From a virus, in the IMG/VR virus record IMGVR_UViG_3300044716_000844, positions 1 through 64,000 of that record: a stretch of DNA of 64,000 bases. One strand, 5' to 3'. The translations under genes and the position numbers were made by a program. Numbering within the stretch: position 1 is the stretch's first letter; every line of letters starts with the position of its first letter. Shown piece after piece: positions 10,551-11,201 of the stretch. Under the pieces are notes generated by a model that saw only the letters and a program-made list of their open reading frames with translations, was not told the DNA's origin and searched no databases.

Positions 10551-11201
10551 ATGGCAACCCTAACAGATAATATAAACGCCCAGAACATTGTTGACCGATT
10601 CGCTGATTACGTAGTTGCGAGCGGGAATGCTAGCATTGTATTCGGTACAAATGCTTTACCCTTTGGCACGTACTCATCGTATTTTCCAGCTATTTTTGGC
10701 GGTACTACAACCGCCGGTAGAGCTATAGCTATTACCGGCACAAACCTAGGCGGATCTGGTTCAGAAATTACTGCTGCTACTATTGTAAGTGTTCTTCGCA
10801 CAGAAACTGCTGCGTATACACGGCTTCGTAAATTAAGAGCAGTATTAAATATCACTGGAACCGGATTGCTTACGGGCCAGCCAAACGACGGCGTGTCTAG
10901 TGTCGACACCATCGTTAACACCCGTGATGATCTCGGGCCAATTTTCGGTCAAGGCCCAGGTATCATTTATGATGAAACATCAAAGGCTAACTTAAACACT
11001 ACCTATGTGCAAACACTCGCTGCAACTGCAAACACCGGTATAGTGACAAGCAGTAGTATTACTACGGCTAACCTAGAAACGTTCTTCACAAACCTAAGAA
11101 CTGCTTATGGCACAGCGAGGGATACCATCCATACAGAACAAGTCAACGTTTGTCACGCATCTTGCCATGCCAACTGCCATAGCTCTCGGGGCCGTAGATA
11201 A
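10551..11201 (+). CDS. Putative radical SAM substrate: structural-like protein with C-terminal (CHxx)3 motif
   Basis: 216 aa, T/A/G/S-rich. All 3 Cys and all 4 His lie in the last 23 residues (HTEQVNVCHASCHANCHSSRGRR). Directly follows an rSAM/SPASM gene. Confidence 0.65.
   Translation: MATLTDNINAQNIVDRFADYVVASGNASIVFGTNALPFGTYSSYFPAIFGGTTTAGRAIAITGTNLGGSGSEITAATIVSVLRTETAAYTRLRKLRAVLNITGTGLLTGQPNDGVSSVDTIVNTRDDLGPIFGQGPGIIYDETSKANLNTTYVQTLAATANTGIVTSSSITTANLETFFTNLRTAYGTARDTIHTEQVNVCHASCHANCHSSRGRR

Follow-up and report, generated by a model that had tools for sequence, protein, structure and literature searches.

What does a small protein with a cysteine- and histidine-rich end do among radical S-adenosylmethionine (rSAM) genes in the fibre region of a virus? 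The question is raised by positions 1 to 64,000 of IMG/VR record IMGVR_UViG_3300044716_000844, a stretch of 64,000 nucleotides (nt) that was analysed as a whole and is called the window here (the source record is 95.6 kb long and estimated to be 55% complete). Its genes are those of a T4-like myovirus, with terminase, sheath, portal, gp23-type capsid, UvsW and gp46. The gene in question (10551..11201, plus strand, stop codon at 11199-11201) encodes a protein of 216 amino acids (aa), referred to below as ORF216, which ends in CHAS-CHAN-CHSS-RGRR. A preliminary description made from the letters alone had proposed that this end is enzymatically modified and displayed on the virus particle. At a probability of roughly 0.6, we conclude that ORF216 is a virion protein of the tail module and that its C-terminal tail is the substrate of the rSAM and oxygenase enzymes encoded with it.

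A conserved Cys/His tail and its predicted globular body

The translation bears out the earlier reading that all three Cys (residues 201, 205 and 209) and all four His (194, 202, 206 and 210) fall within the final 23 residues and that the core begins at 11151, the first base of the C201 codon; residues 1-193 contain neither amino acid. The C-terminal sequence is HTEQVNV-CHAS-CHAN-CHSS-RGRR, that is (CHxS/N)x3-RGRR, and its last 16 residues (11151..11198, plus strand) form the putative modified core. Codons differ between the three units, and the repeat is therefore conserved as protein and not as a DNA repeat. Among the 412 six-frame open reading frame segments of at least 50 aa in the window, CHxxCH was found once and an RxRR C-terminus once. 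The fibre proteins neighbouring ORF216 have 0-2 Cys per 1000-1800 aa, and the tail is the sole Cys/His-rich element amid otherwise Cys-free structural genes.

The ORF216 family comprises at least 513 clusters at 90% identity (word-indexed search, E<=1e-3) and 205 representatives at 50% identity (exhaustive HMMER search). Asked whether the tail motif is kept among homologues, the family gave a clear answer: 255 of the 267 relatives fetched end exactly in C-H-x-[SN]-C-H-x-[SN]-C-H-x-[SNA]-R-x-R-R-COOH at the true C-terminus, and the other 12 are fragments or carry small indels within the motif. Bodies diverge below 30% identity. In an alignment of 131 sequences with a mean column identity of 12%, the sole invariant columns are the nine tail positions C201, H202, C205, H206, C209, H210, R213, R215 and R216. 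Within the H-x-X3 part of each unit the His is invariant and X3 is Ser or Asn in 96-99% of the 255 tails, otherwise Ala, Asp or Gln. Judged from these alignments, conservation of the motif goes far beyond chance. Three members (P0147, P0178, P0223) have altered tails, e.g. CHSN-HxNT-CHxS-(K)RSRR or CHNS-CHAN-GGGG-RSRR, and are natural experiments on the number of units required.

Cultured phages carry the same tail. The homologue of Atu_ph07 ends in CHSSCHASCHNSRSRR, that of pPa_SNUABM_DT01 in CHTSCHTSCHSARGRR and that of Sinorhizobium phage Phosso in CHTSCHASCHSSRSRR, and a tblastn search of a phage collection placed further homologues in the RSL2/RSF1/FLC6/FLC8/SURPRISE13 group. Among about 185,000 prokaryote genomes, matches came from only 9, of which eight are metagenome-assembled genome (MAG) or binned contigs and the ninth is a 4.3-kb contig in an isolate assembly; wherever the flanks were long enough, these matches carry the same phage-type module as the viruses.

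AlphaFold2, run with the family alignment, predicts the body (residues 1-200, 10551..11150, plus strand) to be a globular alpha/beta domain (predicted local distance difference test, pLDDT, 86.6; predicted template modelling score 0.82), with helices at 10-26, 75-91 and 172-190, strands at 92-101, 137-147 and 193-200 and a variable loop at 105-135. The tail is modelled at low confidence (pLDDT 53-59) and unstructured. Foldseek against PDB gave no match at E<=0.001 for the body, a wide fold search with VIA-align reached a best Z of 4.5 with no solved structure alike, and BFVD returned only uncharacterised members of the same family; ORF216 matches no Pfam or NCBIfam model. On this model, the body would have an undescribed fold. 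The preliminary description had called its composition fibre-like, which is true (T, A, G and S make up 95 of the 216 residues, 44%) but does not extend to the predicted fold.

Three Cys and three His repeated at i, i+4 are classic metal ligands. The tail might therefore be an unmodified metal-binding (Zn, Fe or Cu) or disulfide-forming element that lends stability to a tail protein or makes it oligomerise, in the manner of the His-metal sites of T4 fibre proteins, while the enzymes act elsewhere, on fibre proteins or a small molecule. We regard this as unlikely. It leaves unexplained why each unit has a near-invariant Ser/Asn as its fourth residue and why the protein ends in R-x-R-R-COOH, and the fibre proteins of the window offer no Cys and no motif in common with the tail. 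A c-type haem site of the CX3CH kind was also considered and rejected on general knowledge alone, given cytoplasmic phage assembly, the lack of Ccm-type genes and three overlapping units.

Gene linkage, late promoter motif and virion presence of a homologue

Linkage was counted in 80 related IMG/VR loci, of which 79 are informative in that they have sequence upstream of the ORF216 homologue. An rSAM gene, rSAM1 (9529..10548 in the window, plus strand, with its stop 2 nt before the ORF216 start), lies directly upstream in 79/79 informative loci, and unkA (11212..11940, plus strand; an acidic protein of 242 aa, phrog_20767) lies directly downstream in 79/80. The arrangement cupin-rSAM-ORF216-unkA-rSAMs recurs in all cultured phages with the module (RSL2/RSF1/FLC, SURPRISE13, DT01, Atu_ph07 and Phosso), and among cultured phages an orthologue of a further enzyme, rSAM4, is always accompanied by an ORF216 homologue. 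Conversely, no homologue with readable flanks was found without adjacent rSAM genes. The linkage to rSAM genes that the preliminary description had asked about is thus present throughout; two of the three observations it had listed as counting against a modified precursor, a motif lost among homologues and homologues free of rSAM genes, are the reverse of what these loci show. If the tail were unmodified, there would be no explanation for why rSAM1 and unkA enclose ORF216 in about 100% of loci, in phage lineages that differ widely.

Seven genes (rSAM1, ORF216, unkA, rSAM2, rSAM4, rSAM5 and unkD) form a core common to T4-like, RSL2/FLC, DT01 and Atu_ph07-type phages and to MAG contigs. In DT01, FLC4-11C, SURPRISE13, Atu_ph07 and Phosso its neighbours are baseplate genes or genes annotated 'virion structural protein'. 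In the window the whole block is tight, lies on the plus strand and sits between the gene of a Cys-free fibre protein of 1819 aa (3595..9054, plus strand) and a tail-fibre-assembly-like gene (21447..21779, plus strand; phrog_3304), which closes it.

A T4-type late promoter motif, TATAAATA, is found at 10374..10381 (plus strand), inside the 3' end of rSAM1 and 170 nt before the ORF216 start. The window contains 11 copies, every one on the coding strand and nine of them 25-45 nt ahead of structural gene starts; further sites include 21415 (ahead of the fibre-assembly-like gene), 28692, 43558, 47938, 49572, 53642, 54347, 55315 and 56704. The placement of these copies indicates that the phage of the window uses T4-type late promoters. 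A chance intragenic match at 10374 was considered and rejected on the grounds of conservation, as 72 of 79 related loci have a copy no more than 320 nt upstream of the ORF216 homologue where 0.048 would be expected. Its position between rSAM1 and ORF216 gives ORF216 a late promoter motif of its own, downstream of the cupin and rSAM1 genes, which would fit a product made in stoichiometric amounts beside catalytic enzymes. With this motif upstream and fibre and fibre-assembly genes on the flanks, ORF216 groups with the tail module.

The virion proteome of Atu_ph07 lists the ORF216 homologue, gp170, as a 'hypothetical protein' of 31.89 kDa (PMC6102473 Table S5). We matched gp170 to AUZ94952 by mass (computed 31.894 kDa vs 31.89 kDa listed) and by gene number, with gp180, the 13,350-nt structural gene AUZ94962, as the anchor and AUZ94952 ten genes downstream; gp176 and gp177 were likewise matched by mass to AUZ94958 and AUZ94959. 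Eight unique peptides covered 35.16% of gp170, which was found in gel bands 1-9 and was most abundant in band 1 (PMC6102473). Neither the rSAM1 homologue (40.87 kDa) nor the unkA homologue (30.40 kDa) of this phage is in Table S5 (PMC6102473). Together with the confident model of the body and the conserved late motif, the detection of gp170 lends direct support to the earlier idea of a folded virion protein as the 'leader'. Other proteins of about 30 kDa in the table have their maximum in bands 7-8 (PMC6102473), and gp170 thus runs much higher in the gel than expected for its size. Since no reductant is listed for the gel loading buffer (PMC6102473), the high species may be disulfide-linked, SDS-resistant or otherwise covalent. 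Migration of the virion homologue in the top band of a gel that appears to have been non-reducing is a point in favour of an unmodified, metal-binding or disulfide-forming tail. The virion proteome of phiRP31 (PMC5468394) was set aside as evidence; RP12 and RP31 are absent from the tblastn matches of ORF216 in the phage collection and their rSAM cluster is composed differently.

Rare metagenomic relatives of 453-461 aa (P0274-P0276, P0176) consist of an N-terminal Pfam Gly_rich_2 domain followed by the ORF216 body and tail. Similar glycine-rich domains form the receptor-binding tips of S16 gp38 and Pam3 gp24 (PMC9608196). A scan of viral contigs for loci of the fusion form (P0274) found none.

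These observations on the body also bear on a different fate of the tail. ORF216 might be a precursor with a giant leader, whose modified end of 16-17 residues is cut off as a free ribosomally synthesised, post-translationally modified peptide (RiPP) or as a peptide-derived cofactor, in the manner of pyrroloquinoline quinone or mycofactocin, the body being a carrier. In PqqA/PqqE and MftA/MftC a C-terminal core is likewise encoded beside a SPASM rSAM enzyme, and the strictly C-terminal core of ORF216, the oxygenases of the module and the chance that one of its several uncharacterised proteins is a protease all fit such a precursor. We consider it highly improbable, as the body is conserved and well folded in the model, is present in Atu_ph07 virions and can be fused to a Gly_rich_2 domain, and as searches with family profiles detected no protease or exporter family in the module.

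The other genes of the block are arranged as follows. Its order is cupin/JmjC-like, rSAM1, ORF216, unkA, unkB, rSAM2, unkC, rSAM3-like and a first 2-oxoglutarate (2OG) oxygenase, then a B12-rSAM, 2OG oxygenase, rSAM4, rSAM5, unkD and 2OG oxygenase. The cupin/JmjC-like oxygenase (9051..9551; Pfam Cupin_2, JmjC_2) overlaps the fibre stop and is kept upstream of rSAM1. Behind unkA come unkB (11928..13085; acidic, 385 aa, in 68/80 loci), the SPASM-type core member rSAM2 (13085..14137) and a variable block (14031..18526) of unkC, rSAM3-like, 2OG oxygenase, KedN5-like B12-rSAM and 2OG oxygenase that is present in some loci only. SPASM-like rSAM4 (18528..19565), the most conserved gene of the module, is followed by the core member rSAM5 (19553..20464; partial SPASM/twitch-like) and by unkD (phrog_20737) with a 2OG-Fe(II) oxygenase (20446..21385), all on the plus strand. 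Across the 80 loci the order kept is fibre-cupin-rSAM1-ORF216-unkA-unkB-rSAM2-[variable]-rSAM4-rSAM5-unkD-2OG-tfa.

Across lineages, the module is linked to the C-terminal ~130 aa of the 1819-aa fibre protein (about 8665-9054). This domain (phrog_22593, with an RYADLAEKY stretch; L001 5294-5647) is directly upstream of the module in most loci and occurs also in gp176 of Atu_ph07, a virion protein of 66 kDa; it may be a docking partner or a further substrate.

Protein identity of rSAM4 is 53-73% between the aquatic T4-like phage of the window and the copies in jumbo phages and MAGs (window 18528-19565; L001 12407-13489; L002 12429-13520; L096 9001-10086), far above that of other module genes, and the jumbo phages that share it infect Agrobacterium, Sinorhizobium, Ralstonia, Burkholderia and Pseudomonas. 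This sequence identity suggests that the reaction is strongly constrained or that the module was exchanged recently.

Variants of the module were also observed. Four Bdellovibrio-type MAG contigs (L087, L090, L091, L093) have an extra gene between rSAM1 and the ORF216 homologue and a second rSAM1-like gene immediately after it; the contig with one such variant measures 299 kb and could be a jumbo phage or a prophage. Modules of FLC and SURPRISE13 have two genes annotated 'dihydrofolate reductase' between rSAM2 and rSAM4 (L003 13682-14895; L004 13957-15134). Elsewhere in the window, 38092-40485 encodes a gp38-type adhesin (Pfam GP38, E 6e-6) and then a 2OG-Fe(II) oxygenase-like gene, so that a tail-tip protein is paired with an oxygenase for a second time in this phage.

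The co-encoded enzymes and known rSAM systems

rSAM1 begins at its cluster motif, with CX3CX2C at residues 13-20 and no N-terminal RiPP recognition element (RRE), and continues with GGEP and a complete set of SPASM cysteines at 240-325; the SPASM domain scores 38.3 bits and passes the curated cut-off of 27. The full SPASM motif is also present in rSAM2, with a close variant in rSAM4 and partial motifs in rSAM5 and rSAM3-like, and the 554-aa enzyme is a KedN5-like B12-dependent rSAM. The best full-length curated matches of rSAM1 are maturases of peptides or proteins, namely PapB (6.8e-15), DynA and anSME, then DarE, HxsB and YhhB. Against PDB sequences, phmmer gave no match for rSAM1 and a profile search gave weak relatives only, namely 8vpo, anSME (4k36-39), CteB (5wgg) and ChlB (9gm3; E 5e-5, over the N-terminal core). 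From their motifs and scores, we class the rSAM proteins of the module as deep-branching maturase-like enzymes. A predicted complex of rSAM1 with ORF216, three 4Fe-4S clusters and S-adenosylmethionine scored 0.02 (mark 0.32), which speaks neither for nor against binding. unkA is modelled confidently by AlphaFold2 (pLDDT 91.7), fold searches with Foldseek and VIA found no convincing match for it (best Z 4.5 over 51 residues), and ESM Atlas searches with unkA and unkB returned nothing usable.

So many enzymes of one type raise the possibility that ORF216 is an accessory to them, whether as an Fe-S carrier, an electron donor or a scaffold, instead of being a substrate or a structural protein. Five to seven rSAM enzymes in a phage need cluster loading and a reductant, and a CxxxCxxxC tail with His could conceivably ligate an Fe-S cluster. 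We give this explanation very little credence. A homologue was detected in virions and the enzymes were not, ORF216 is preceded by a late promoter motif of its own, relatives are fused to a Gly_rich_2 domain, and Pfam, NCBIfam and fold searches found no ferredoxin-, flavodoxin- or Nfu-like fold or family for it.

ORF216 has the marks of an rSAM substrate, i.e. conserved linkage to a SPASM enzyme and a Cys-rich core that is more conserved than the leader. By its scores against curated models the system nevertheless falls outside the ranthipeptide/SCIFF, triceptide, Hxs and anSME families, and an assignment to the ranthipeptide/SCIFF or triceptide precursors with which the preliminary description had compared the tail is not supported. 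Like ranthipeptide and SCIFF precursors, ORF216 has a Cys-rich C-terminal core beside a SPASM rSAM; PapB gives the highest score of the curated models, and the solved structures nearest to rSAM1 include CteB. However, PapB reaches 55.1 bits vs a cut-off of 340 and the SCIFF maturase 22.3 vs 425, the acceptor Asp/Glu/Thr pattern is not conserved in the tail, and the precursor has 216 aa with 3 Cys, four to five times the length of theirs, and stays in a virion. The triceptide motif is aromatic1-X2-X3, with HAA, HNR and HTK as proven substrates (PMC11499958), and the units HAS, HAN and HSS of ORF216 fit it as do the substrates of HaaB, YhhB and HtkB. Unlike triceptides, ORF216 has an invariant Cys before each His and a 200-aa folded protein as its 'leader', and the maturase models score low (YhhB 27.9/445, AmcB 28/425, GrrM 20.4/310 bits). 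The maturase pair of the His-Xaa-Ser system scores low as well (HxsB 33.6/370, HxsC 27.4/268 bits), nor is ORF216, which has no NCBIfam match, recognised as an HxsA-type repeat protein.

Enzymes that act on whole proteins were compared as well. anSME resembles rSAM1 in length (~340-370 aa), in a CX3CX2C motif at the extreme N-terminus, in its full SPASM domain and in lacking an RRE, and its substrate is a whole protein rather than a short peptide. In the third tail unit, C-H-x-S-R, Cys and Arg are spaced as in the sulfatase motif C-x-P/A-x-R. Yet rSAM1 scores 51.5 bits on TIGR03942 vs a cut-off of 349, position +2 of this C-x-x-x-R unit is G, S or N (A in 7/255 tails, P never), and there are three tandem units with invariant His in a viral structural context. 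In QhpC/QhpD a dedicated SPASM rSAM cross-links several Cys of a protein subunit, further oxygenase steps follow, and the product is a permanently modified subunit of a larger assembly, the gamma subunit of quinohemoprotein amine dehydrogenase. ORF216 differs in that the QhpD model scores 22.7 bits vs 453, the tail has no Asp/Glu or Trp partners and the protein belongs to a phage virion. As a small virion protein encoded amid distal fibre genes, ORF216 is also like the gp38-type adhesins of T2 and S16 and metal-binding fibre tips; its body, however, shows no sequence or fold similarity to gp38, and adhesins are not known to be associated with rSAM genes.

A proposed maturation pathway and its meaning

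The observations cover the motif and its invariance, the gene linkage, the late promoter motif, a confidently modelled body and one homologue in virions; that the tail is modified, by which enzymes, with what chemistry and to what effect on the particle is inferred. Several points weigh against ORF216 being a virion protein with an enzymatically modified tail. Detection in virions rests on one distant homologue (~29% identity over the C-terminal 44%) in a PEG-purified preparation from which 131 proteins were called (PMC6102473), and the band-1 anomaly of gp170 could reflect an oligomer that is held by disulfides or resists SDS. Searches of the module with Pfam and NCBIfam turned up no RRE or PqqD-like recognition element. 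All curated maturase family models score far below cut-off on the module enzymes, and homology therefore does not reveal the chemistry. For a tail of 16 residues, five to seven rSAM genes are a large number, and some may therefore have other targets, for instance fibres or a small molecule; the unmodified tail gains from this apparent surplus of enzymes.

Even so, we favour a modified tail, and propose that maturation would proceed as follows. ORF216, a globular body of ~200 residues with a flexible 16-residue tail of the form (C-H-x-S/N)x3-R-x-R-R-COOH, would be made late in infection as part of the tail/fibre module. A dedicated maturation module would act on it, with rSAM1, 2, 4 and 5 (three of them with full or near-full SPASM cysteines), unkA and unkD as its core and the cupin/JmjC-like oxygenase, the 2OG oxygenases and the B12-rSAM as accessory members. 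The enzymes would work in the cytoplasm on the exposed tail, the folded body standing in for a leader peptide. Their reactions are likely oxidative and directed at Cys and/or His. Candidates are Cys thioethers (ranthipeptide/QhpD-like), triceptide-like His-C2 to C-beta cyclophanes on H-x-S/N (PMC11499958) and an anSME-like conversion of Cys to formylglycine at the C-x-x-x-R unit; the cupin, 2OG and B12 enzymes may in addition hydroxylate or methylate Arg, His or Ser positions. Modified ORF216 would then be built into the tail apparatus and the enzymes left behind.

What the tail would do on the particle is a more speculative matter. A metal-binding or receptor-mimicking tip, as the preliminary description had suggested, is conjectural. 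The tail may become a new protein-borne structure that works there, perhaps a cross-linked metallocentre or a covalent link to the conserved fibre C-terminal domain, in effect a 'virion-displayed RiPP'; we regard this as possible, if doubtful. If true, such a structure would serve host recognition, tail stability or triggering, and would be common to T4-like phages and several unrelated jumbo phage lineages.

Maturation by rSAM/SPASM enzymes is familiar from small peptides and a few cellular proteins, and to our knowledge no case is described among the structural proteins of virus particles. Our literature search found no paper on ORF216 or its tail motif; genome papers call these phage rSAM genes merely 'unusual' (PMC12390700, PMC11898562, PMC8066314), and a comparative review of jumbo phages makes no mention of the module (PMC7824862). 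We read the present case as probable protein-level rSAM maturation applied to a virus-particle protein, and there is a fair chance that its chemistry and role are new. The module is spread over hundreds of uncultured aquatic T4-like phages and is also found in cultivable jumbo phages of Pseudomonas, Ralstonia, Burkholderia, Agrobacterium and Sinorhizobium. With its 16-residue tail, a defined set of enzymes and phages that can be worked with, one easily recognisable substrate candidate tied to a seven-gene core turns an rSAM oddity into a testable question, the answer to which could reveal new rSAM chemistry on Cys and His and a new phage way of building or tuning the host-recognition apparatus.

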